Assembly: GCA_016186955.1 (NCBI GenBank)
Contig: JACPKP010000009.1
Coordinates: 97,595-161,594 of the forward strand
Direction: 5' to 3'
DNA: 64,000 nt
Origin: Candidatus Daviesbacteria bacterium
GTDB taxonomy: Bacteria > Patescibacteriota > Microgenomatia > Daviesbacterales > UBA10151
The notes under the pieces were generated by a model, which did no database searches, was not told where the DNA came from, and saw only the letters and a program-made list of their open reading frames with translations. Of the stretch, positions 13,280 through 63,928 are shown piece after piece. Each line of letters begins with the position of its first letter. Positions within the stretch are counted from its first letter, which is position 1. The position numbers and the translations under genes are program-made.

Positions 13280-13328
13280 CGAAAAAAGGGTTGTAGGTTC
13301 AAAAGTTCTATGGTAAAATCTTTTCCAA

Positions 13329-14822
13329 ATGGAGAGAGTAAATTTACACCCGGATCTGCAAAGTAGTGAGTTTAATTTAGATGAAATATGTTTTCCCCCG
13401 CGCAGAATTCCCAATTTTGAATGGAGTGATGTAGACCTTTCGACTCAACTGACACGAAATATCCGCCTTCGGGGTATTCCGCTACTAAGCTCTCCAATGG
13501 ATACAGTGACTGGTTCAAAAATGGCAATACTGATGGCTTTAATGGGAGGAATTGGGGTCATCCATTATAACTTTCCGACAATTGAAGATCAGATGAAAGA
13601 GGTAGAAAAAGTAAGAAAATTTGAGGCAGGCTTTGTGAAAAACCCGGCAGTGATATCTCCCAAAATAAAAATAAGCCAGGTGATTGAGCTTATTAATCAG
13701 AATGGATTTTCCAGTTACCCTGTTACCGAAGATGGGACACTGCAAACTAAACTGGTTGGTATGGTGACTGAAAAAGATATTTTTGACAATTTAGAATTGG
13801 GTGTTAGTTTAGACAGCAAAGTCAACAAAATCATGACTACTGCAGAAAATCTAGTAACTGAAAGTAGAAAAAATACTTTAGATAAAAATGATATAAAAGC
13901 AGCAAATAAAAAAATTAGGGAAACGCATATTGATACGTTGCCGATTGTGGATAAAGATTTTAAGTTGGCAGCGTTGGTTACAAGAAGTGATTTAGATAAA
14001 AACCGGGAATTTGAATTAGCGACTAAGGATGAAAATAAACAATTAAAAGTTTTAGTTGCTGTTGAGTCCAGGTTTAATAATGTGAAAGAAAGAATTGCGC
14101 AAGCAGCTTATTATGGGGCGACAGGTATTGTTGTAGACTCCCGGAATATTTATGAAGATGGTATTCCAACTGCAAAATTTACCAAAAAAGAATTCCCGGG
14201 CCTTGAGGTCGTTTTAGGAAATTTAGTTACAGCAGAAGTTGCTAAAGATGTGTTTGAAAGATGTATTGTTGATGGGCTTAGGGTTGGGATGGGAGGGGGT
14301 AAAGTTTGTATAACAGCAGAAAGACTGGGGCTCACAAGAGATTTGGGGGCTGCCACAAGGGATGTGGCAGAGGTGAGGAATTTTTATATAAGGAAAAGTG
14401 GATATGTGGGTCTTTGGATAGATGGTGGGGTAGAATACCCAAAGCATTTTGTGGGTGGAATGATCCTTGGGGCAGATGGGGCAATGATGGGAACTGAGTT
14501 AGCCGGGCTTGAAGAATCCCCGGGGAACAGGATTTTAGATGATAGGGGATTGTTGGTAAAAACAGTTAGAGGTATGGGTTCTCCACAAGCAATAATGGAA
14601 AGACAAGGTGCTTCAAGATATGGGTTAGAAAATGTCAAGCTGCGCAGATACCCTGAAGGTATTGAAAAAAAAGTGCCATATAAAGGGGACGGCTTAGATT
14701 ATTTAAATGAGATGTTGTGTGGAATTAAACAAGCTATGCATGGGTTGGGATGTAAAAACATTAAAGAACTCCGGCTTCATGGTTATATTGCGCCCTGGCA
14801 CCGCTCACCCCTAAAGTCCTGA
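13329..14822 (+). CDS. guaB: Inosine-5'-monophosphate dehydrogenase (IMPDH, CBS-pair containing)
   Basis: N-terminal LSTQLTRNIRL...PLLSSPMDTVTGSKMAI...GGIGVIHYN, CBS pair, catalytic-loop region GMGGGKVCITAE, GGMILGADGAMMGTELAG. Ends in a TGA stop. Confidence 0.8.
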   Translation: MERVNLHPDLQSSEFNLDEICFPPRRIPNFEWSDVDLSTQLTRNIRLRGIPLLSSPMDTVTGSKMAILMALMGGIGVIHYNFPTIEDQMKEVEKVRKFEAGFVKNPAVISPKIKISQVIELINQNGFSSYPVTEDGTLQTKLVGMVTEKDIFDNLELGVSLDSKVNKIMTTAENLVTESRKNTLDKNDIKAANKKIRETHIDTLPIVDKDFKLAALVTRSDLDKNREFELATKDENKQLKVLVAVESRFNNVKERIAQAAYYGATGIVVDSRNIYEDGIPTAKFTKKEFPGLEVVLGNLVTAEVAKDVFERCIVDGLRVGMGGGKVCITAERLGLTRDLGAATRDVAEVRNFYIRKSGYVGLWIDGGVEYPKHFVGGMILGADGAMMGTELAGLEESPGNRILDDRGLLVKTVRGMGSPQAIMERQGASRYGLENVKLRRYPEGIEKKVPYKGDGLDYLNEMLCGIKQAMHGLGCKNIKELRLHGYIAPWHRSPLKS

Positions 14823-14859
14823 TTGACATAAATTTCCAAAACAAATATATTCCATTTGC

Positions 14860-15639
14860 ATGAGAAAACCTGAAGTTATCGCTGTTTGCGGAGGGCAATG
14901 GGGAGATGAGGGTAAGGGGATTACGCAAGATGAGATCGAAGATAGAATTGCAGTTGCCCGTATTCCAGTTGAACAGGAATTTGGTAGTTTACCAGTTTTT
15001 AAAGTTAAACAAGGTAGGTTTATTAATGAAGTCCCTTTTCGTATAGACCCTGACTATAGAACAAACGATTGGGTTTTTAGGTTTTATCCTAAGTGGAGGG
15101 GATGGGAGCCAGGAACTAATGAGAAATATTTGGCTTATGCTTTTCCGCATGATTTAATACATTTTTATCAATTGGAGAGTTATTCAAAGAGATTAGGAGT
15201 TTTTAGAATTATGCCCAAAGCATTTCATCTAGTTTATGCACAAATTTTTGCTGATTGGTTAGAGGGCGCTGCAGATTTATCAACCTGGAAAGTTATATAC
15301 AATATTCTAAATTCCCAAAATGATTTTTTGGCGACTAATCAAGATGGACTTGGCAAATATTTCTCGGACAGGTTAGCAATGGTTTTAACAGGATTAAAAA
15401 AAGAAAAATTAATTGAAAACTCATCAATAAGCGATCTTGGTCTTCCTTTTTATCTTCCAGAGAATATGGGAAAATCTGCCAACCAACTAGCTGAACAATT
15501 GAAAATGAAAAAATCCGACAGATATGCTAGGGGTGTTTTGAGGAGCGCTAGCATTATATCGAAAACAGGCATCTCCCTTAAAGAATTATTACAGACCCCT
15601 ATGAGTAATAAGGAGTTAAAACAAAAGGCAGGGATTTAA
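14860..15639 (+). CDS. Hypothetical protein whose first 20 codons are a copy of the purA N-terminus
   Basis: 14860-14920 is near-identical (2 mismatches) to the purA 5' end 15641-15701 (MRKPEVIAVCGGQWGDEGKG), then diverges into a 240-aa sequence I could not assign. Stops 1 nt before the purA ATG. Confidence 0.4.
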   Translation: MRKPEVIAVCGGQWGDEGKGITQDEIEDRIAVARIPVEQEFGSLPVFKVKQGRFINEVPFRIDPDYRTNDWVFRFYPKWRGWEPGTNEKYLAYAFPHDLIHFYQLESYSKRLGVFRIMPKAFHLVYAQIFADWLEGAADLSTWKVIYNILNSQNDFLATNQDGLGKYFSDRLAMVLTGLKKEKLIENSSISDLGLPFYLPENMGKSANQLAEQLKMKKSDRYARGVLRSASIISKTGISLKELLQTPMSNKELKQKAGI

Positions 15640-15640
15640 G

Positions 15641-17029
15641 ATGAGAAAACCTGAAGTTATCGCTGTTTGCGGGGGGCAATGGGGGGATGAGGGTAAGGGG
15701 AAGATTATAGATTATCTTGCACAGGAGGCAGATGTTGTCATCAGGGCCCAGGGTGGAGACAACGCCGGGCATACAGTTGTAAATCCGTTTGGTAAGTTTG
15801 GGCTTCATCTTATACCTGCAGGAATTTTTAACCCTTTCACGGAAAACATTATCGGTGCAGGTGTTGCCTTAAATCCCAAGAGTTTAATGGAGGAGATGGA
15901 AAATTTAAGTCAGCATGGGGTGCCTTTAGATAATTTAAAAATCAGTCCCAAAGCACATCTGGTTTTTGATTATCACGAAGAGTTAGACAAGCTGCAGGAA
16001 CAGTTAAAAGGTAACGGAAAAATAGGGACAACCGGACGCGGGATAGGCCCCTGCTATATGGATAAGGCTGAAAGGGTGGGGTTGCGGGCAGAACTTTTGA
16101 CCGGCGACCCCTACATTCTGCTTGATGAAATGAGTAAAGCTCTAAAATCAAAGAGGGATGCGTTGGTTGGCAGAAATCTCGCAGCAGCGGTTGATAGTTA
16201 TCTTGAAAGCGAATATGGCGGGGGGCCGGGATTTATTTCCAATGAAGATATCGGCAGGATGGTAGTGGTGAGTGCGGATTTGATTCCCGACTCATTCCAT
16301 GCAGAATATTATGAAGAGTTAATTTTAAATGCGCACAGGCTGCTTGCCCCTATAATCACAGACACTGATGAAATTGTGCACCAGCGCCTGAATAAGAATT
16401 CGCGGATTTTGATTGAAGGGGCGCATGGGACTCTTTTGGATTTGGATCATGGAACATACCCAATGGTAACTTCATCAAGCCCGACAGTGGCCGGGCTACT
16501 TTTGGGTTCAGGGATCCCCCCTAAATATTTAACACGCTCGATAGGGGTGTTTAAAGCTTACCAAACCAGGGTTGGCGCAGGTGGCATGCCAACAGAGCTA
16601 AAAGATGCACAAGGTGAGTTAATCAGGCAGAAAGGGCATGAATTTGGGACTACCACAGGCAGGCCAAGAAGGGTGGGATATTTTGACACGTTAGCTTGGG
16701 AATACGCAATGAAAATGAATGGTTTTTCAGAAATTGCCCTGACAAGACTTGATATCTTATCAGGAGTCGGAGACTTAAAGATCTGTTATGAATATGAGCA
16801 TAAAGGAGAAATTTTAGAAAGCTTTCCAACTGATTCAAGAATTCTGGGTGAATGTAGCGCTCGTTATCTGGAAAATGATAAGAAAGAAGGTTGGGATGAG
16901 GATATCAGCGGAGTAAGGAGATTTGAGGATTTACCGCTTAATGCTCAGAATTATATAGGGAGTACTATTGCAAAACCAAAATTCGTTGGTGTTGGTGAGA
17001 AAAGGGAAGACCTAATTATTATAAAATAA
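15641..17029 (+). CDS. purA: Adenylosuccinate synthetase
   Basis: P-loop GGQWGDEGKGK, GDNAGHTV, TTGRGIGP, full-length family architecture. Confidence 0.9.
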   Translation: MRKPEVIAVCGGQWGDEGKGKIIDYLAQEADVVIRAQGGDNAGHTVVNPFGKFGLHLIPAGIFNPFTENIIGAGVALNPKSLMEEMENLSQHGVPLDNLKISPKAHLVFDYHEELDKLQEQLKGNGKIGTTGRGIGPCYMDKAERVGLRAELLTGDPYILLDEMSKALKSKRDALVGRNLAAAVDSYLESEYGGGPGFISNEDIGRMVVVSADLIPDSFHAEYYEELILNAHRLLAPIITDTDEIVHQRLNKNSRILIEGAHGTLLDLDHGTYPMVTSSSPTVAGLLLGSGIPPKYLTRSIGVFKAYQTRVGAGGMPTELKDAQGELIRQKGHEFGTTTGRPRRVGYFDTLAWEYAMKMNGFSEIALTRLDILSGVGDLKICYEYEHKGEILESFPTDSRILGECSARYLENDKKEGWDEDISGVRRFEDLPLNAQNYIGSTIAKPKFVGVGEKREDLIIIK

Positions 17030-17034
17030 CTTAT

Positions 17035-17310
17035 ATGACTGAAAGAATGCCCTTTGACCAGGAAGAGATGGCTAAGATTTTTCAGAAAGCTGAAAAACAG
17101 CAACAGTTTTGGGATGGACATTATCAGGATTTTGTAAAACAAAAAAAGTATTTAAATAAATTTGTGGCGGTAAATAATCAAGATGGGCAGGTGGTAGCCT
17201 ACAGCAAAGATTTGCTTAAGGTTTTAGATAAAATAAAAGGGAAAGGGTTGAGTTTAAACGAAGTTTGGGTGAGGTTCATCACCGATAACCCGCAGAAGCT
17301 GATGTTGTAA
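17035..17310 (+). CDS. Hypothetical small protein
   Basis: 91-aa ORF packed tightly after purA. No recognisable motif. Confidence 0.35.
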   Translation: MTERMPFDQEEMAKIFQKAEKQQQFWDGHYQDFVKQKKYLNKFVAVNNQDGQVVAYSKDLLKVLDKIKGKGLSLNEVWVRFITDNPQKLML

Positions 17311-17311
17311 A

Positions 17312-18280
17312 TTACTTGCCGGTAGCTTTCAAAAGCTCCCACATAACCTTTGCCCGTAAATTATCAGCTCCAAAACTATAAACAACATTTATCGCGATCG
17401 CCTGATCTTTTTCTCTTGGCAACTCAAAATGTTTGTGTCGGATACCATGAACAAAACTCCATTCCTCATGAATTTTCACAACAACTATTTTCCAAATTTC
17501 TCTTTGGGTTTGGGCGAGCTCCCTCAAGGCCCCGAATAAAAACTCACGGTTTTGCTGGTTTATCTCTGGTGGGAAAGAAGGCGACAAGAAAAACACAGCC
17601 GTTTGTTGAGGATCTAAGGTTTTTCCTTGACTGAATGGCGGTAAAGGGTCTGACGGAAGGGGTTGCCCATATGATAATAAATTTTCGAGATCAGACTGCT
17701 TTTTTACTGAAATGCTTCTAAACCAGAGTGGGTTTGCGGCAAAACATAAATGAAAAGTTTCATTGAATCCTAATTTTCTGATGATATAAGGCAGGTATTT
17801 TTTAAGTTCTTCCTGGATTTCTACAGCTTTACCATCGGAAATACTTTTATCAGTTATAATACCCCAGTCAAAATCCGGCTCTTTTATAGAACCTGATGCT
17901 TCGCGCACCATAGCGCCCCCATGAATAGAGCTTCCCAACAAAACCACAGCTTGGATTTCCGGATATTTTTTAGATAATATTTCAAACGCAAAATTGGCTA
18001 CCCCAGCCATTTTTGGGTGGATTGTCACCTCTTCTTCAATCAAAGCATCTGCCAGTTTGTCTAAGCCTATTTTTTCTTCATATCTTCTTACTTCATCAAT
18101 AATTTTATTCAGAGATTGCTGTTTGGGTAATTGTTTTGATATAGCAGCCCTTCGGATGAGTCTTTTAAAGGCATATTTCCATTGTTTGGGGCTTAATGGT
18201 AATGGCGGATCTTCTATAGTTTGATTGGGTTCGTTGTTATCTTTGAGGGGTTCTTCATCTGTTTCAGTATCTTCGTCCAT
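17312..18280 (-). CDS. Hypothetical protein, possible minimal nucleotidyltransferase fold
   Basis: hG[GS]...DxD-like segment [31 protein letters not shown], with atypically long spacing. Acidic N-terminus. Confidence 0.35.
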
Positions 18281-18344
18281 ATGGCTAAAATACCATAAAG
18301 ATATTCAACAGAGCAAGGCCGTCCAAAAAGAGTATAATAGAGCC

Positions 18345-19745
18345 ATGAAACCGGAAGCAAAACCCCAAAAACAGGATTACCAGTTTGGTTTTCATGACAA
18401 AGAGGATTATATTTTTAAATCAGGGCGGGGACTTTCCCCGGAGATTGTAACAGCCATCTCAGGTTATAAAAAGGAGCCTAAATGGATGAAAAAATTCAGG
18501 CTGCGTTCTCTGGAGATTTTCAACAAAAAACCCATGCCTTCCTGGGGGGCTGACCTTTCAGGCATTGATTTTGACAATATTTTTTATTATGTCAAACCTT
18601 CTGAGAAAGCGGAAGGAAACTGGGAAGAGGTGCCGGACTATATTAAGAAAACTTTTGATAAACTGGGAATTCCGGAGGCTGAAAGAAAGTTTTTAGCAGG
18701 AGTGAGCGCCCAGTATGAATCTGAGGTAGTCTACCACAACATCAGGCAGGATTTGGAGAAAAAGGGGGTTATTTTTACTGATATGGATTCCGGTTTGCGG
18801 GAACACGAAGGTTTGGTCAAAGAATATTTCGGGACAATAATTCCTCCTGCAGATAATAAGTTTTCTGCCCTAAACAGCGCTGTTTGGTCCGGCGGAAGTT
18901 TTGTTTATGTCCCAAAAGGGGTGGAGGTGGAGATACCCCTTCAGGCGTATTTTAGGATCAATACGGAAAATATGGGGCAATTTGAGAGGACGCTGATCAT
19001 TGCGGATGAGGATTCAAAAGTGCATTACATTGAAGGGTGTACAGCCCCAATTTATTCCTCAGATTCCCTCCACAGCGCTGTTGTTGAACTGATTGCTAAA
19101 AAAGGCGCCCATATCCGCTATACCACCATCCAAAACTGGTCCTCCAATGTTTATAACCTGGTTACAAAACGGGCGGTGGCTTACGAAGATGCAGTGGTTG
19201 AATGGGTTGACGGGAATTTGGGCTCCAAAGTGACCATGAAATATCCCAGTGTATATTTAATGGGTCCTCATGCCAAGGCTGAGATTATCTCTGTGGCGTT
19301 TGCAGGAGAGGGCCAGCACCAGGATGCGGGAGGCAAGGTAGTCCATGTAGCCCCCGAGACAACCTCAACCATCACCTCAAAATCCATCAGCAAAGACGGA
19401 GGAAGGACTTCTTACAGGGGACTTTTGAAAATCCACAAAGGTGCATACGGGTCAAAATCAGCAGTTAGGTGTGACGCCCTGCTGCTGGATGAAAAATCCC
19501 GTTCCGATACTTACCCCACAATTGAGGTTGATGAGGAGAAGGTAACTATTGAGCATGAAGCAACTGTGGGTAAAATTGGGGAGGAACAGCTGTTTTATTT
19601 AATGTCCCGCGGGCTGTCAGAGACACAGGCAAAAACTATGATAGTCAACGGGTTTTTTGACTGTTTTACCAAAGAGCTGCCAATGGAATATGCAGTTGAG
19701 TTAAACAGGTTGCTGGCTATGAGCATGGAGGGGGCGGTGGGTTAA
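18345..19745 (+). CDS. sufB: Fe-S cluster assembly protein SufB
   Basis: Full SufB/SufD beta-helix family signature (e.g. [29 protein letters not shown]). Start set at the first in-frame ATG (MKPEAKPQ), because the upstream part of the track ORF overlaps the divergent gene. Confidence 0.85.
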
Positions 19746-19831
19746 TTATACGATCAAAAGGCGTCCCCTTTTAAGGCTGCGAATACAGAGGTCTGTTGAT
19801 TTAAGCTTTATTTTTTGGTATAACAGTTCCC

Positions 19832-34619: not shown

Positions 34620-35564
34620 TCAGTTATCTTTGCTGAATTCACGCTCTTCCCAGATGAAGTTAGCATCAGATGGGTCTTGTTTTGACCTGAATTTTCTAAG
34701 CCTTAGACCTAAGGGGGCAAGCCCGCCCAAAGCCAATCCTGCCAGAGGCAGACCTGTTTTAGGCAGCTCTTTTACATTCAGTGATTCTTTGGTAATGACT
34801 GCAGGTGTTCCGCTGGAAGCAGCAACACGAGCTGCTGTAAAGCCCAAAACCTCACCTTTACTGGTGACAACTTCACCTTTTGCATTAATAGTGATGTTGT
34901 TAGTGTTATTGTTAGTCAGTGACTGGTTATTGTTTTGAGTTTGAGTTTGCGTTTGAGTTTGTGACTGGGTAATACAAACTACGGTTGACCCAATCAGCTG
35001 GGTTATAAATCCATTAGGGCACTGTTGACCCCCGGAAGGAGGTGTGGGAGTAGGTGCCAGACTAGGTGTTGGGGTTGGAGTAGGGGTTATGCTGGGTGTA
35101 GGAGTTGGGGTAGGTGTTGGGGTTGGAGTAGGGGTGGGGGTTGGAGATGGTGTGGGTGTAGGAGTCACACTAGGTGTTGGGGTTGGAGTAGGGGTTATGC
35201 TGGGTGTAGGAGTTGGGGTGGGTGTAGGAGTGGGAGTTGGCGTAGGGCACTGTTTTTTCTTTTTTGGTTTGCAAGGGCCGGGTTTATTATCCTCATTTTC
35301 ATTCCCCGCACCACCTTGATTATTTTCCGAGGAGATGTCGTTTACAGTTTCGTTGTCACATCCACCACATCCGCTTCCTTCGCTGCCACTGCCTCCAGCC
35401 GGATCAGACGGGTCATCAGCAAGTACAAAAGCAGGCCCTTTTGTGATTAATTGGTTTATGGTTTTAACGTTAAAAATACCAAAAATCAATAAAATAACAG
35501 CTCCGATTAAAAGAAGTCTTTTCAAAGATAAATTGTTTTTTGCTAATTCCATAATACTATTCAT
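34620..35564 (-). CDS. Pro/Thr-rich surface protein with LPxTG-type sorting signal
   Basis: N-terminal signal/TM helix, long (TPTPTPS)n linker, then LPKTG + hydrophobic stretch + RLRKFRSK. 19 further residues follow the charged tail. Confidence 0.6.
35040..35255. repeat. Tandem DNA repeat (about 108-nt unit duplicated, with shorter GGTGTTGGGGTTGGAGTAGGGGT sub-repeats) encoding the PT linker
   Basis: CTAGGTGTTGGGGTTGGAGTAGGGGTTATGCTGGGTGTAGGAGTTGGGGT occurs at about 35062 and again at about 35170. Confidence 0.6.
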
Positions 35565-45787: not shown

Positions 45788-46239
45788 GTATCAAATTATA
45801 TCATGGTTGACCGTAGAACGAGCTTGTAACAAAATTTTTACACAATGGAAAAAATCTCTTTAACTTCTGGTTTTAGATAAACTCATTTAACTCGAGTTTG
45901 CAACTCTTGTTAAACGATTTTGAACCCAAAATACTTTTTGATTAGACTCAAATTGGAATATTTTGAGTATAAGAGGGACGCATTGACTCTTTGGATTTTA
46001 CATCTGTAATTAAATTTATATGGAAATTCAAAGGTCTGATACGGTAATTAACTCTCGAATTAAGCAACAACCGGAGTCACTAACTTATGAAGAGTTGAAA
46101 GAAAAAGCACGATATATTGTCTTAGGAGAACGTAAAGTGATCCACCTAGAATCACAATTAAGATATAGTCGTTTGGAGAGCATTTCATAATCCTATAGCA
46201 AAAACACTATATTGACATAAGTTACTTTTTTGTCATACG

Positions 46240-49200
46240 GTGAAAACCGTGAAAACTATTTACACAGTCTTTGGATGTATCATTTTAAGTTTCATTGTTT
46301 TGAACCTAAACTTATTTACCCCTTCAGCTGCTGCAAAAAGCGACAGGCCAAAACATGCTTCAGGCGAATTGATTATAAAAATGGGAGTCCAAGGTAACAT
46401 TGATGATATCAAGAATAAATTCAGGATAAAAAATTCCAAAAATGTGTTAGGGAAATTTAATTTAAACAATGACAAAATCAAAAAGTCAGGTTTGGACAGA
46501 CTTTATAAGGTTGAGGTTGATGCTAACGAAGATGTTGTAAATTTATCCAGGCAGCTTCAAGCTGATTCAAACATTGAATATGCTGAACCCAACTTTGAAG
46601 TTTCTGCTACTGTCATCCCCAATGACCCTTCATTTAGTTTGCTGTGGGGTTTAAATAATACCGGCCAATCAGGCGGGAAAGTTGATGCGGATATTGATGC
46701 GCCTGAGGGTTGGGATATCAATACCAATTCTTCACAACTTTTGGTTGGCATTATTGATACCGGTGTTGGTTATAACCATCCTGATTTGCAAAGCAATATG
46801 TGGGTTAACCAAGCAGAGCTTAACGGGCAACCCGGAGTAGATGATGACGGGGACGGGTTTGTTGATGATATACACGGCTATGATTTTGCCAATAATGACC
46901 CTGACCCTTTAGATGACCATGGCCACGGGACACATGTTGCAGGAACCATTGGGGCGGTTGGAAACAACGGTATTGGAGTTGCAGGGATCAACTGGTCTGC
47001 AAAAATTATGGCAATTAAATTTCTAAACAGCTCCGGTTCAGGTTATATCGACGGGGCAGTTCAAGCGCTGTTTTATGCCAATATGATGGGTGCAAAAATT
47101 ACCAATAACAGCTGGGGTGGGGGAGGGTATTCACAGGCTTTGGCTGATGCAATTTCCGCAGCCGATGCTGGCGGTAACCTGTTTATCGCTGCCGCAGGCA
47201 ATAGCGCTGCCAACAATGACCTTTACCCTTTTTACCCGGCCTCTTACACCAATAAAAATGTGATGGCCGTTGCAGCAACAGATACCAGTGATAACCTGGC
47301 TTCATTCTCCAGCTTTGGTGCAACTTCTGTCCATATGGCAGCGCCGGGTGTTTCAATTTATTCAACTGTCCCGACCGGCAGCTGTAACTTATGTAACCCC
47401 TCGGGCTATAGATACTTAAGCGGCACCTCTATGGCGACACCTCATGTTGTAGGCTCGGCAGCCTTGATTTGGGCGCATAGTCCTTTATTAACGCACGATC
47501 AGGTTAAAGCTAAACTTATTGCAACTTCTGATAAAATGATTAATTTGAGCGATAAATCAATAAGCGGTGGCAGGCTTAACTTATTAAATAATTTTGAAGA
47601 CGACTCTACTCCGCCCTCCCCTATTGCGGATCTGCAAGTTGCCGGTAGTTCATATAACAGTGTTACTTTAAGCTGGGCAGCAACAGGGGATGACGGCAAC
47701 AGCGGGCGGGCCGACCAATACGATATCCGTTTTTCAACCAGCCAGATTGACTCTCTAAACTTCAATTCTTCACAGAAAATGCCTAATCCACCCCAGCCGC
47801 AGACTGCAGGAACTGCCCAGACAGTAGTTATCAAAGGATTAAGCGAACAGACTGCATATTATTTTGCTATTAAATCAATTGATAATATGGGAAATATGTC
47901 AGATATATCGAACATAGTTTCAGCTACAACTACGGTGTCACGAATTGTTTTTGATGAGGATTTTGAAGCAAGCCCAAGCGGATGGGTAGTTGAAGGGTCA
48001 ACAGGTGATGCTTCAGCAAGCGGGGCTCTATGGCATTTATCAGAACGAAGATTCGCCAGCCCGACGCATGCTTTCTACTATGGTAGGGAAGATACCGGCA
48101 CTTTTGATACGGGATACAGAAATTGGGGAAACTTAATATCTCCGGTGATTGATCTATCAAAGATTTCCAACCCGAGTCTGGTTTTTAAGCATTTCCTGGC
48201 AACAGAAAACGGTGCAGGCTACTTAGTCAATTACGATAGGGCATCTGTTCAGTTATCAGGAGACGGCGGATTACACTGGAGCGAAGTAATGTTAAAGAGT
48301 TCAACTGGAGGCAGCTGGATGACAGAAAATTTAGATTTATCGGGTTTTTACTCTAATTCTTTAATGGTTAGATTTAGTTTTGATTCAGTAGATAGCATGT
48401 TGAACTATTATGAGGGTTGGTTTGTTGATGATGTTAAGTTGATTGGTTCACCCGATATAACCGCTCCTACAGCTAAAATTATCAGCCCAGCAGATAATTC
48501 TCAGGTTACCGCCACAATTACAATTGAAGCAGATGTTTCAGATGACATTGGTGTTACCATGGTGGACTTTTTGGTTGACGGGACAGTTGTAGCCGGGGAT
48601 TCAACAGCGCCATACATGATAAATTACGATACCTCCCAGTTGGCTCAGGGTTCTTCCCATGTAATCACTGCAAATGCATATGATGCCGCTTCTAATATGG
48701 GTTCTTCCGATCCGGTTAACATTCTGATTAAGGATTTAACGCCTCCGGTAGTTTCTTTGACCGCTCCCGCCCCAAACGCTTATATTACAGGGACGGTTAC
48801 TATGGCGGCCGATGCTTCGGATAATGTTGGAGTTTTAAAGGTCGATTTTATGGTGGATGGGAACGTTTATGGAAGTGACGCCACTATGCCATACAGTTTT
48901 GATCTTAATACCTCCGCCTTTCTTCAGGGTACCAATCACAGTATTTCTGCTTATGCCTATGATGAGGCTGGAAATCTGGGTTTTTCCAGCCAGATAAATG
49001 TCAAAATTAAGGATGTAACTGTGCCAACCGCGTATGTTACATTCCCTACAGAAGGCGCAGTTGTTAGCGGAATAATTAATATTACTGCCGATGCTGCGGA
49101 CAATATTGGTGTTACCATGGTTGATTTTCTGGTTGACGGTGTAGTTGTGGGCAGGGATTCTTTTGCGCCGTATAATTTTAATTTTGACACGTCATTCTAT

Positions 49201-50124
49201 CCCCAAGGGTCTGTACATACGGTTTCGGTTTACGCTTATGACCAAATGGGTAATCGTGGGTTTTCTCCGGTTGTAAGCTTTAGAAACAGGGATTTTATTG
49301 CACCGATTGTTAAAATTAGCGCACCGGCCGATAATTCAACTGTATCCGGTATAATTAATCTGGCAGTTGATGCTTCGGATAATGTCGGGGTTACAATGGT
49401 TGACTTCTTGGTTAATGGAGTTGTGGTAGCCCGAGACTCCATTGCACCTTTTGAGGTAAGCTATGATACCACCATTCTTGATAAAGGGAGTTCCTATATG
49501 ATTACTGCAAATGCATATGATGCCAACAGTAATATGGGTTTATCCCAACCGGTAACCTTTAAGGTTGCTGACATAACACCCCCCACAGTTGCAATGACCA
49601 ACCCTTTAAACAATTCCAATATTTCCGGACTAATAAACTTGACTGCTGATGCAACAGATAATATTGGTGTAACCATGGTGGATTTTCTACTTGACGGGGT
49701 GGTAGTTGGTAGAGATTCAATCTCCCCTTATGCTTACTCCTGGGATTCAAACTATTCGGTTGGCCAACATACCTTATCTGCTAATGCATATGATGGGGCA
49801 GGCAATATGAAACCATCGGTGTCTGTCAATGTTACTGTTTTGGATGTCCAAGCCCCTGCAATCACTATCACTAACCCAACAAACAACAGTACCATCAAAC
49901 GAGGGTCAACTACAACTATTACCACAAATACTTCAGATAATGTCGGGGTTGCAAAAGTTGAGTTTTATGTAAATAACGCCTTAAAATGCACTGACACAGC
50001 TGCGCCCTATTCTTGCAACTGGTTAGTCCCTTCTAAACCAAATGTTGTATATACAGTTGTTGGTATTGCTTATGATGGTGCAGGCAATAACTCCGGTGTC
50101 TCGATAAAAACCACCTCAAAATAG
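46240..50124 (+). CDS. Secreted subtilisin-like serine protease (S8) with FN3 and six tandem Ig-like repeats
   Basis: Signal/TM N-terminus, I9-like propeptide, catalytic triad motifs IIDTGV (Asp), HGHGTHVAGTIGA (His), GTSMATPHV (Ser), then six ~93-aa repeats. GTG start. Confidence 0.85.
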   Translation: MKTVKTIYTVFGCIILSFIVLNLNLFTPSAAAKSDRPKHASGELIIKMGVQGNIDDIKNKFRIKNSKNVLGKFNLNNDKIKKSGLDRLYKVEVDANEDVVNLSRQLQADSNIEYAEPNFEVSATVIPNDPSFSLLWGLNNTGQSGGKVDADIDAPEGWDINTNSSQLLVGIIDTGVGYNHPDLQSNMWVNQAELNGQPGVDDDGDGFVDDIHGYDFANNDPDPLDDHGHGTHVAGTIGAVGNNGIGVAGINWSAKIMAIKFLNSSGSGYIDGAVQALFYANMMGAKITNNSWGGGGYSQALADAISAADAGGNLFIAAAGNSAANNDLYPFYPASYTNKNVMAVAATDTSDNLASFSSFGATSVHMAAPGVSIYSTVPTGSCNLCNPSGYRYLSGTSMATPHVVGSAALIWAHSPLLTHDQVKAKLIATSDKMINLSDKSISGGRLNLLNNFEDDSTPPSPIADLQVAGSSYNSVTLSWAATGDDGNSGRADQYDIRFSTSQIDSLNFNSSQKMPNPPQPQTAGTAQTVVIKGLSEQTAYYFAIKSIDNMGNMSDISNIVSATTTVSRIVFDEDFEASPSGWVVEGSTGDASASGALWHLSERRFASPTHAFYYGREDTGTFDTGYRNWGNLISPVIDLSKISNPSLVFKHFLATENGAGYLVNYDRASVQLSGDGGLHWSEVMLKSSTGGSWMTENLDLSGFYSNSLMVRFSFDSVDSMLNYYEGWFVDDVKLIGSPDITAPTAKIISPADNSQVTATITIEADVSDDIGVTMVDFLVDGTVVAGDSTAPYMINYDTSQLAQGSSHVITANAYDAASNMGSSDPVNILIKDLTPPVVSLTAPAPNAYITGTVTMAADASDNVGVLKVDFMVDGNVYGSDATMPYSFDLNTSAFLQGTNHSISAYAYDEAGNLGFSSQINVKIKDVTVPTAYVTFPTEGAVVSGIINITADAADNIGVTMVDFLVDGVVVGRDSFAPYNFNFDTSFYPQGSVHTVSVYAYDQMGNRGFSPVVSFRNRDFIAPIVKISAPADNSTVSGIINLAVDASDNVGVTMVDFLVNGVVVARDSIAPFEVSYDTTILDKGSSYMITANAYDANSNMGLSQPVTFKVADITPPTVAMTNPLNNSNISGLINLTADATDNIGVTMVDFLLDGVVVGRDSISPYAYSWDSNYSVGQHTLSANAYDGAGNMKPSVSVNVTVLDVQAPAITITNPTNNSTIKRGSTTTITTNTSDNVGVAKVEFYVNNALKCTDTAAPYSCNWLVPSKPNVVYTVVGIAYDGAGNNSGVSIKTTSK
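48455..50121. repeat. Six tandem ~280-nt coding repeats (Ig-like domains) within the S8 protease gene
   Basis: Repeated motif ...I(S/T)xPxxN(S/A)x(V/I)(S/T)G...(A/V)DASDN(V/I)GV(T/L)(M/K)VDF(L/M)VDG...Y(A/D) recurs six times. Confidence 0.6.
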
Positions 50125-62687: not shown

Positions 62688-63767
62688 CTAGAGGGAGCTC
62701 TCCAGTCTTGTTTCCGCCTCTATGAAATCATCAAGATTGCCGTCAAGGACACCCTCTGCATTTGAGGTTTCAATATTGGTCCGCAGGTCCTTGACCATTT
62801 TATAGGGATGGAGTACATAAGAGCGGATTTGGGTGCCCCAAGAGGCTTGAGTTGTGGTTCCCCGCATTTCTTTTTCTGCCTGCTTTTGTTCCAGCTGTTG
62901 TTTATCCCAAAGTTTCGCCATTAAAATTTTCATGGCATTTTCCCTGTTTTGCAGTTGTGACCTTTCTGTTTGGGCTGTTACAACAATACCTGTTGGGACA
63001 TGCTTGAGCCTGACAGCGGTTGAGACTTTATTGACATTTTGTCCGCCAGCCCCGCCGGAACGGAAAGCTTCAAATTCAATATCAGCTTCATTGATCTGTA
63101 CTTCTTCTTGGTTTTCAATGACCGGTAACACCTCTACCAGAGCAAAAGAAGTTTGCCTCAGGTGGTCAGCGTTGAAAGGGGATTGCCTGACTAACCTGTG
63201 TGTCCCCTTCTCGTTTTTTAAAAGACCGTAAGAGTAGGGTTTATGTACAATCATGGACATCTGCTTGATCCCGGTCTCTTCCCCTAAACTTTCATCAGTA
63301 ATTTCATACTCCCAGCTTTTTTTATCAAAAAAACGCTGGTACATCCTCGAAAGCATTTTTGCCCAATCCATTGCTTCAACCCCGCCTGTACCTGAATGGA
63401 TAGAGATAATTGCTTCGGAATTGTCATGAGGACCTGATAAAAAAAGCCGCAATTCCACTTCGGAGAGAATTTTTTCAATCTGGCCCGTTTCGATGTCCAA
63501 GTCTTGTTGCATGTCAGCCTCTTCTGCAACTTCCAGCGCATTTTGTATACGTTGTTCTAAATCTTCTAAGGTTTGCAATAATTTTGTTTTTTCTGAAAGC
63601 TGACGGCTGGTTGCTGAGGACTCTTTTTGATCATTCCAAAATCCTTCCTTCATGGTTTTGGCCTCCATCTCCCTGATCTCCCTGTGTATAAAATCCCGGT
63701 CAATCTGGGTGGATATTTTTTCAAACCTGTTTTTCTGGTCTGAGAGTTTATTTTTAATCTCATCCAT
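62688..63767 (-). CDS. prfB: Peptide chain release factor 2
   Basis: GGQ motif [15 protein letters not shown] tripeptide (RQSPFNADH). Contiguous 359-aa ORF with no programmed frameshift. Confidence 0.9.
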
Positions 63768-63928
63768 GGGAAGATTATATCAATTTTGGGATCAAATAAC
63801 ATATTTGGGATCAAATGAAGCTTCGCTCCGATGAACATCGAGGCGGTTTCTTCCAGAAATCGCTTCTTTCCGTCGCCTTCATCCGTGGACTTATTAGTCC
63901 ACGGATTTCGGCAGACTCCAATAAGACG

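Follow-up and report, generated by a model that had tools for sequence, protein, structure and literature searches.

We describe the start of purA, the gene of adenylosuccinate synthetase, in a 64,000-nucleotide (nt) stretch of a Candidatus Daviesbacteria bacterium genome (the 291-kb contig JACPKP010000009.1 of assembly GCA_016186955.1; this whole stretch is called the window, and positions are counted from its first letter). From the sequence of the locus, it is probable that a real insertion has converted purA from a transcription unit of one gene into an operon of two, in which an accessory gene without expression signals of its own follows codon 20 of purA. The first 61 nt of purA are present twice. 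One copy opens a chimeric open reading frame (ORF), and the other opens the intact purA directly behind it. The features of the locus are as follows.

14823-14851, plus strand: native purA promoter, TTGACA-17 nt-TATATT, ending 8 nt before the ATG at 14860; the best site of the region, with 11/12 matches
14860-14920, plus strand: repeat copy A, purA codons 1-20 and 1 nt, with GGA at codons 11 and 15
14860-15639, plus strand: chimeric ORF of 259 amino acids (aa), NCBI HYW46_05325, annotated as a hypothetical protein
14921-15640, plus strand: inserted DNA, 720 nt, covering a family gene between its start-codon position and the first nt past its stop
14923-14925, plus strand: start-codon position of the family within the insert, ACG, aligned with the ATG of homologues
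15630-15640, plus strand: junction where purA would be re-coupled, with an SD-like (Shine-Dalgarno-like) AGGGA at 15630-15634, 6 nt upstream, TAA at 15637-15639 and G15640
15641-15701, plus strand: repeat copy B, the start of intact purA, with GGG at codons 11 and 15
15641-17029, plus strand: purA, intact, adenylosuccinate synthetase of 462 aa (Pfam Adenylsucc_synt PF00709, 3.4e-143)

The duplicated start of purA and the empty sites of relatives

The two copies form a direct repeat of 61 nt with a start-to-start spacing of 781 nt, and they are identical at 59/61 positions (blastn of flank against flank, E = 3.6e-26), as an earlier reading made from the sequence only had reported with its two mismatches. 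Both mismatches are GGA versus GGG in glycine codons (11 and 15), and hence synonymous. The identity ends abruptly, with none upstream of the ATG and none past the A that is the first base of codon 21, and the longest exact match between the copies is 32 nt. No other dispersed high-identity repeat of at least 28 nt was found across the 64-kb window, the remaining repeats being tandem arrays within genes or chance-level pairs at 73-79%. The sequence-only reading also held that two consecutive ORFs have the same beginning, and the 259-aa ORF and the 462-aa purA indeed both open with MRKPEVIAVCGGQWGDEGKG. Copy A sits in the native upstream context of purA and is now the N-terminus of the chimeric ORF, in which purA residues 1-20 are fused in frame to 239 unique residues. 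The stop codon (TAA, 15637-15639) is followed by G15640 and then by the purA ATG at 15641; its place 1 nt before purA had been seen correctly, while the unique part, counted as 240 unassigned residues, has 239 and is a member of a conserved family.

The upstream neighbour and two relatives indicate what the locus looked like without the insert.

13329-14822, plus strand: guaB, inosine monophosphate dehydrogenase with CBS domains (Pfam IMPDH 3.1e-72, CBS 1.1e-14), syntenic with the loci L001 and L092

L001 is the locus of the closest purA found among 185,579 species genomes, and L092 is that of the next relative. The window purA is 69% identical to that of L001 over the full length and 61% identical to that of L092, and no relative of higher identity than 69% was found among 5.8 billion proteins. 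In L001 guaB is followed after 37 nt by purA, with the same promoter and no gene between them, and in the window the spacer from guaB to the ATG at 14860 is likewise 37 nt. In L092 guaB and purA overlap by ATGA, and the insert is absent. The purA site is polymorphic in this respect, with the insert present in the window and absent from both relatives. Judged from the compared sequences, the ancestral order is guaB-purA, because both relatives have empty sites and L001 has the same 37-nt spacer, and the window locus carries an additional 781-nt unit, made of 720 unique nt and one 61-nt copy. These empty sites and the equal spacer bear out the earlier proposal that DNA was inserted at purA's 5' end and captured its initiation region. 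At the two variable sites, L001 and L092 agree with copy B at codon 15 only, and the comparison is uninformative, since third positions are saturated at such distance. The displaced PurA gives a full-length family match that includes the N-terminal P-loop GDEGKG, and it aligns with its relatives over the full length.

The ends of the inserted DNA are tidy. The initiator methionine of two homologues (P0004 and P0005) aligns with residue 22 of the chimera, and the DNA at the junction reads GGG-ATT-ACG-CAA-GAT in the window versus TTG-ATT-ATG-AAA-GAA in L084, the locus of P0005. By this alignment, the left end of the insert lies no more than 3-4 nt from the start codon of the family gene itself, which now reads ACG, and its right end lies 1 nt past the stop. 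The insert was found to bring along neither a promoter nor a ribosome-binding site nor a terminator. Its composition is not outlying (guanine-plus-cytosine (GC) content 0.353 versus a gene mean of 0.410 +/- 0.037). Neither a second copy of the insert within the window nor terminal inverted repeats at its ends (repeat search of the locus) were found, and the exact chimeric protein had no match in the gene-position index.

Some further observations concern PurA and its surroundings. PurA is 449-462 aa long in this lineage and about 425-433 aa in most other matches from the candidate phyla radiation (CPR) and other bacteria (window, 15641-17029; L001, 1659-3008; L092, 4001-5386). The Pfam match to the PurA of this lineage is split in two, and from this an internal insertion of roughly 30 aa, specific to the lineage, is implied around residues 170-225. 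Compared with L001, where the gap between purA and sufB is only about 320 nt, the window has two additional genes in this interval, a second indel in the neighbourhood. Neither of the two had a PADLOC match.

17035-17310, plus strand: 91-aa DUF5678 protein (Pfam 3.3e-6), absent from the L001 interval
17312-18280, minus strand: 322-aa convergent ORF with a faint Pol-beta nucleotidyltransferase match (E 0.034), absent from the L001 interval

The listed TTG start of sufB (18225-19745) overlaps the opposite-strand ORF and is probably too far upstream, as the L001 orthologue starts near an internal site of the window gene. Elsewhere in the window, the minus-strand ORF 34620-35564 contains at 35029-35247 a G-rich array of imperfect tandem repeats whose spacing alternates between 12 and 18 nt (GGTGTTGGGGTTGGAGTAGGG...); it presumably encodes a low-complexity segment rich in Pro, Thr and Asn. 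At 48505-49974, six tandem units of 279 nt (93 aa) with 62-79% identity lie within a 1294-aa ORF (46240-50124) and resemble the domain repeats of a large surface protein.

Probable expression of the two-gene unit

No SD sequence was found between the native purA promoter and the ATG at 14860, and L001 has TTGACT-17-TATATT-8 nt-ATG at the homologous place. Because of this spacing from promoter to ATG, the mRNA from the native purA promoter is probably leaderless. It had earlier been supposed that the first ORF inherits both the promoter and the ribosome-binding site of purA; the promoter part stands, while the second part falls, as the architecture upstream of 14860 is of the leaderless type. 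In the window, TAnnnT is found 5-10 nt before the start in 25/56 long ORFs versus 13 at a control offset, an SD-like 4-mer lies upstream of the start in only 7/56 genes, and the pattern suggests that leaderless or near-leaderless transcripts are widespread in this Daviesbacteria genome. A TATAAT-like box 6-10 nt upstream of the start was noted for many genes (for example at 13314-13328, 19818-19831, 45788-45800 and 62768-63780), and the locus L085 has the same architecture.

The second start, at 15641, is of another kind. No -10 box was found 6-10 nt upstream of it, and the AGGGA at the junction belongs to the sequences that other internal genes of the window use (AGGAG, GGAGG, AAGGGGAG or AGGGA). 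A weak promoter-like site inside the insert (15499-15528, TTGAAA-18-TATGCT) has 9/12 matches, which is at chance frequency. TAA-G-ATG together with AGGGA would be the arrangement expected for coupling by termination and reinitiation.

If the transcripts are leaderless, the 5'-terminal AUG was the only start signal of purA, and it is now owned by the inserted gene. Transcription from the conserved promoter would start at about the A of the ATG at 14860 and give a leaderless mRNA. Ribosomes would initiate at this ATG and make the chimera, that is, a disordered purA tag of 20 residues followed by a peptidase-like domain of 239 aa. They would then terminate at TAA 15637-15639 and restart at the ATG at 15641, aided by AGGGA, and a normal full-length PurA would be produced by this presumed coupling. 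In such a working, the 61-bp duplication lets the host keep purA, and the newcomer gains expression without signals of its own.

An undescribed family with a zincin-like predicted fold

Apart from the first 20-30 residues, which derive from purA, neither the 239-aa unique part nor the 259-aa protein matched anything in Pfam, PHROGs, NCBIfam, PADLOC or PDB sequences. An exhaustive phmmer scan of 1.84 billion representatives gave 17 other clusters (E 1e-25 to 1e-3; lengths 215-304 aa), and the 18 family members likewise have no database match and belong to no Pfam family. Since none of the 18 matches Pfam, the family is undescribed in domain databases. A word-indexed homologue search with the unique part returned no protein besides the query itself, a metagenome scan with a five-member alignment returned only the loci of P0013, and no homologues were found in viral contigs or, by tblastn, in phages and plasmids. 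Elsewhere the family genes have their own SD sequences, and at several loci a hairpin and a T-run come directly after the stop. Their host genomes range in GC content from 0.35 to 0.58, and the neighbouring genes are unrelated (Na/Ca exchanger, TatD, PolX/RuvA, SecE). Three of the four closest homologues (P0003-P0005), the distant P0018 and also L092 come from one accession block of the Sequence Read Archive (SRR22387924-SRR22388340; Logan runs SRR22387924, SRR22388032, SRR22388041, SRR22388241 and SRR22388340), possibly from one study, and this block may represent a local gene pool.

Two motifs in the alignment of the 18 members are central to the interpretation of the protein.

15148-15162, plus strand: HDLIH, residues 97-101 (H-[E/D]-x-x-H), on a long predicted helix (residues 68-92 of the 239-aa model)
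15256-15279, plus strand: WLEGAADL, residues 133-140, on the next long predicted helix (residues 111-131 of the model)

H97 and H101 are invariant within H-[E/D]-x-x-H-x-Y-Q, and Y103 is nearly so. E135-G136 is invariant across the family within W-x-E-G-x-A-E-L, as is L195-P196 in an L-P-F motif whose F197 occurs in at least 90% of the members. The conserved pattern at the C-terminus is LL-x-TP-x-[TS]-N-x-EL...AG[IV]. The window protein retains all the invariant residues (H97, H101, E135, G136, L195 and P196), and it ends in ...KAGI, the natural terminus of the family. The second position of the first motif is E in 9/18 members, D in 8/18 (the HDLIH of the window included) and H in one (1/18). 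From the motif and the model, E135 is a candidate third metal ligand of the gluzincin type.

The AlphaFold2 model made with the family alignment has a predicted local distance difference test score (pLDDT) of 92.1 and a predicted template modelling score (pTM) of 0.89. Its topology runs from three beta-strands to a long helix with H-x3-H and then to a helix with E-G. When the whole chimera was modelled, residues 1-17 had pLDDT below 50, and the other ten-residue blocks were mostly at 82-98, with one at 65; in this prediction the purA-derived residues 1-17 are a disordered tag, and the domain is unaffected. Foldseek against PDB gave a best E of at least 1.3, and the weak top matches were mostly zinc metallopeptidases, with CapP, Pz-peptidase A, aminopeptidase N, oligoendopeptidase F, BlaR1, ACE, lethal factor and MMP-11 among the weak fold matches. 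Against BFVD the E-values were 6e-4 (an uncharacterised phage protein) and 2e-3 ('Peptidase'), with template modelling scores of 0.42-0.45, and further matches included 'Lethal factor', SprT-like, IrrE and M1-like proteins. With hhalign against an approximate segment of the M1 peptidase LTA4H, only the HExxH motif was aligned, at 1.4% probability. The product of the insert may be described as a zincin-like, gluzincin-type putative metallopeptidase, probably zinc-dependent; the label is putative because it derives from fold and motif, not from demonstrated membership.

Origin of the insertion and comparison with known systems

For the insertion that we consider probable, one-off recombinational capture is the default reading of the event. 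Several routes could have led to it. A staggered break could have been filled by illegitimate or microhomology-mediated capture, with filler DNA. A 781-bp circle sharing 61 bp with purA could have been integrated by a Campbell-type single crossover, and such a circle would have the junction ...GGGATTTAAG|ATGAGAAAACC...GGGGA|TTACGC. Homology-facilitated illegitimate recombination with a donor that already carried the purA 5' end would be a further route, and one example does not tell these routes apart. As for elements of known types, an intein or a group I or II intron was rejected, since the ORF ends in TAA, purA restarts at its own ATG, and Rfam shows no intron. At E <= 1, Rfam found neither intron nor riboswitch on the locus and gave a single chance-level match to a long non-coding RNA. 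An insertion sequence or transposon was rejected as there is no transposase domain and no inverted repeat, and as the duplications at the two loci that have them (61 nt here and 31 nt at L084) are unequal and far above the typical length. An integron gene cassette was rejected on the gap of 1 nt between the stop and the purA ATG and the lack of a structured inverted repeat at the 3' end.

Some points weigh against the interpretation of the locus as a working two-gene operon with a peptidase-like first gene. The junctions are those of a metagenome-assembled contig. The arrangement is found in one genome only, with no closer relative among the 5.8 billion proteins searched. The excess of -10-like boxes before start codons is modest, about 2-fold against a background rich in AT, and both the leaderless start and the coupling are read from spacing. 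The motif in the window is HDLIH and not HExxH, so catalytic competence is uncertain. No PDB fold match has E < 1, the alignment to M1 has its probability of 1.4%, and 'peptidase' is meant at the level of fold and motif.

It is unlikely that the insert is a selfish mobile ORF whose peptidase-like protein, or a factor acting in trans, promotes its spread into purA. Such a reading would fit the topology of the locus, which resembles the mobile-ORF (mORF) gene hybrids of fungal mitochondria in its duplicated terminus, in-phase ORF and intact host gene (PMC3630166), and also the presence/absence polymorphism among relatives, the patchy distribution of the family over genomes of very different GC content and the target, the P-loop GDEGKG, where purA is most conserved. 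It would also fit L084, where a second family member (P0005) is flanked by a direct repeat.

1301-1331 and 2160-2190 of L084: direct repeat of 31 nt flanking P0005, 84% identical (repeat search)

This repeat is the 3' end of an upstream ASCH-like gene; the live gene ends in KKDLRGWMVLK and the stop, and an orphan gene end, KKDLRGWVVLGCTK with its stop, lies 52 nt past the stop of the family gene. In blastn the repeat gave E 8.5e-5 over 28 nt at 86%, a score reached by 0/300 shuffles. Flanking duplication was found in two of the 11 family contexts examined (ten with DNA), namely the window and L084. The other nine contexts, in contrast, are free-standing genes with their own SD and terminator, and the tests of their flanks gave no repeats. 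Pfam, PHROGs, NCBIfam, PADLOC and PDB sequences gave no signature of a nuclease, integrase, transposase or reverse transcriptase, and the predicted fold is zincin-like, not LAGLIDADG, GIY-YIG or HNH. The absence of homologues from the phage, plasmid and viral-contig collections searched and the lack of a second copy in the window also argue against spread, as do the unequal repeat lengths (61 versus 31 nt) and insert ends that have no sequence in common. Of the possibilities named by the sequence-only reading, a homing endonuclease, HNH, GIY-YIG or transposase did not survive the profile searches of the unique part, and the selfish or mobile element retains L084 as its sole support, with no endonuclease, transposase, terminal inverted repeats or intron RNA.

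We regard it as improbable that the insertion is real but inert, that is, a recent, accidental, unselected capture of a gene fragment without function, whose frame would have stayed open only because the event is so young, with purA expressed from another signal. Only two substitutions separate the 61-nt copies, which is consistent with a recent event; HDLIH stands in place of the canonical HExxH, the original ATG is now ACG, the arrangement was seen in no other genome, and the insert contains the weak promoter-like site, at chance frequency. Against this, over 239 codons none of the residues invariant in the family has been lost and the C-terminus is complete, and D at the second motif position is common to seven other members. 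The frame, the position of the stop and the SD-like sequence exactly fit continued translation of an essential-looking purA.

A bolder idea, which we hold to be very unlikely, is that CPR genomes harbour an undescribed minimal 'ORF-only' mobile cassette, a signal-less single gene that inserts at the outermost 5' or 3' end of a host gene, of which it duplicates 30-60 bp. The window (5' end of purA) and L084 (3' end of the ASCH-like gene) would then be two independent insertions of the same family, for which the zincin-like protein or some trans-acting system would be responsible. In leaderless genomes the cassette would hijack the sole start signal, the 5'-terminal AUG, and the host gene would be re-coupled behind it.

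An assembly artefact, in which a sequence from another strain or locus, or a small circle, sharing the 61 nt was threaded between two passes of the purA 5' end, is highly doubtful. The contig is metagenome-assembled, repeats shorter than a read are classic points of mis-joining, and there is no second genome with the same arrangement. Yet the copies differ at two positions, and with at most 32 exact nt shared they are distinct paths at typical k-mer sizes; an assembler with k > 32 would separate them, which argues against a collapsed or looped repeat. The point that the two mismatches speak against an artefact had been made before and is upheld. Copy A has the native 37-nt spacer and promoter, copy B runs into full-length purA, and a random mis-join would be unlikely to give both an in-frame fusion that falls exactly on the family's start codon and, at the opposite junction, TAA-G-ATG.

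Finally, the upstream ORF could be taken for a tandem duplication of the first ~781 nt of purA that then diverged, or for a long regulatory upstream ORF, as the start-to-start spacing resembles a tandem unit and the ORF stops 1 nt before purA; both can be dismissed, since the insert is unrelated to the purA body at the DNA level (best blastn E 0.025, a 13-nt inverted word) and the protein level (no tblastn match) while the 61 nt are 97% identical, and the unique part is an intact member of a conserved family (215-304 aa) with its own homologues and a confident globular fold.

If the two-gene operon is real and expressed, it would be a clean natural example of how a signal-less gene is domesticated in a genome that apparently uses leaderless transcripts: by fusion to a resident start codon, with a short duplication that rescues the resident gene as a coupled second cistron. 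In that case purA, which provides a key step of adenosine monophosphate synthesis in an organism of minimal metabolism, would depend on the translation of a foreign ORF. The small unannotated family, with its confident zincin-like fold and invariant H-x3-H and E-G, could enter domain databases.

The closest parallel is found in fungal mitochondria, where an endonuclease ORF that carries a replacement copy of the gene end has entered the terminus of atp6, atp9, cox2 or nad3 and left a duplicate C-terminus, as in atp6 of Allomyces macrogynus and in atp6, atp9, cox2 and nad3 of Glomus (PMC3630166). As in these mORF hybrids, a conserved housekeeping gene of the window has a foreign, in-phase ORF at its end and a short duplicated terminus, the gene itself is intact, and relatives are without the insert. 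A duplicated gene end beside a functional host gene, the mark of mORF or homing insertion, was found in both the window (61 nt) and L084 (31 nt). In contrast to the mORF hybrids, in which the C-terminus is duplicated and the endonuclease is demonstrated, the window duplicates the N-terminus, including the start codon and the use of the promoter; its host is a CPR bacterium, and the ORF is zincin-like without a nuclease signature. L084 shares the C-terminal topology and lacks the nuclease. Should flanking duplication prove recurrent, the 'mobile ORF with duplicated gene end' would extend from fungal mitochondria to bacteria, with a cargo that is not a nuclease.

Integrative elements such as SXT/R391, which inserts in prfC at its 5' end, also target the end of a protein gene and bring in a replacement for it. 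They are tens of kilobases long and have a tyrosine recombinase and defined att sites. The window is similar in that the insertion lies in the 5' coding end of a conserved gene, the gene is restored, and a direct repeat of host sequence flanks the insert; it differs in that the insert is 720 nt with one ORF, no recombinase and no spare non-coding DNA.

With the gluzincins (clan MA), above all minimal M1-like and 'Peptidase_MA'-like domains that have HExxH and W-x-x-E-G-x-A, the protein shares the H-[E/D]-x-x-H helix followed by the E-G helix, and the three beta-strands before them. It differs in belonging to a family without a sequence match in Pfam or PDB, in the H-to-E spacing of 33 residues, where M1 has 18, and in having D instead of the catalytic E, as do 8/18 members with the window's included; the fold E-values against solved structures are not significant. 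The start of the chimera is like that of leaderless genes, with its -10 box 8 nt before the ATG, no SD, and promoter and spacing conserved in L001. The junction with purA is like that of translationally coupled operons, with stop and restart 1 nt apart (UAAGAUG) and an SD-like element upstream. To our knowledge, no described case has an inserted gene that fuses in frame to a leaderless start and so takes it over, with the host gene that it displaces turning to initiation by coupling or an SD sequence. That an inserted gene can be accompanied by a duplicate of the host gene's terminus is already known, and what sets the purA locus apart is its topology at the 5' end, the leaderless start that was probably taken over and the undescribed zincin-like cargo.

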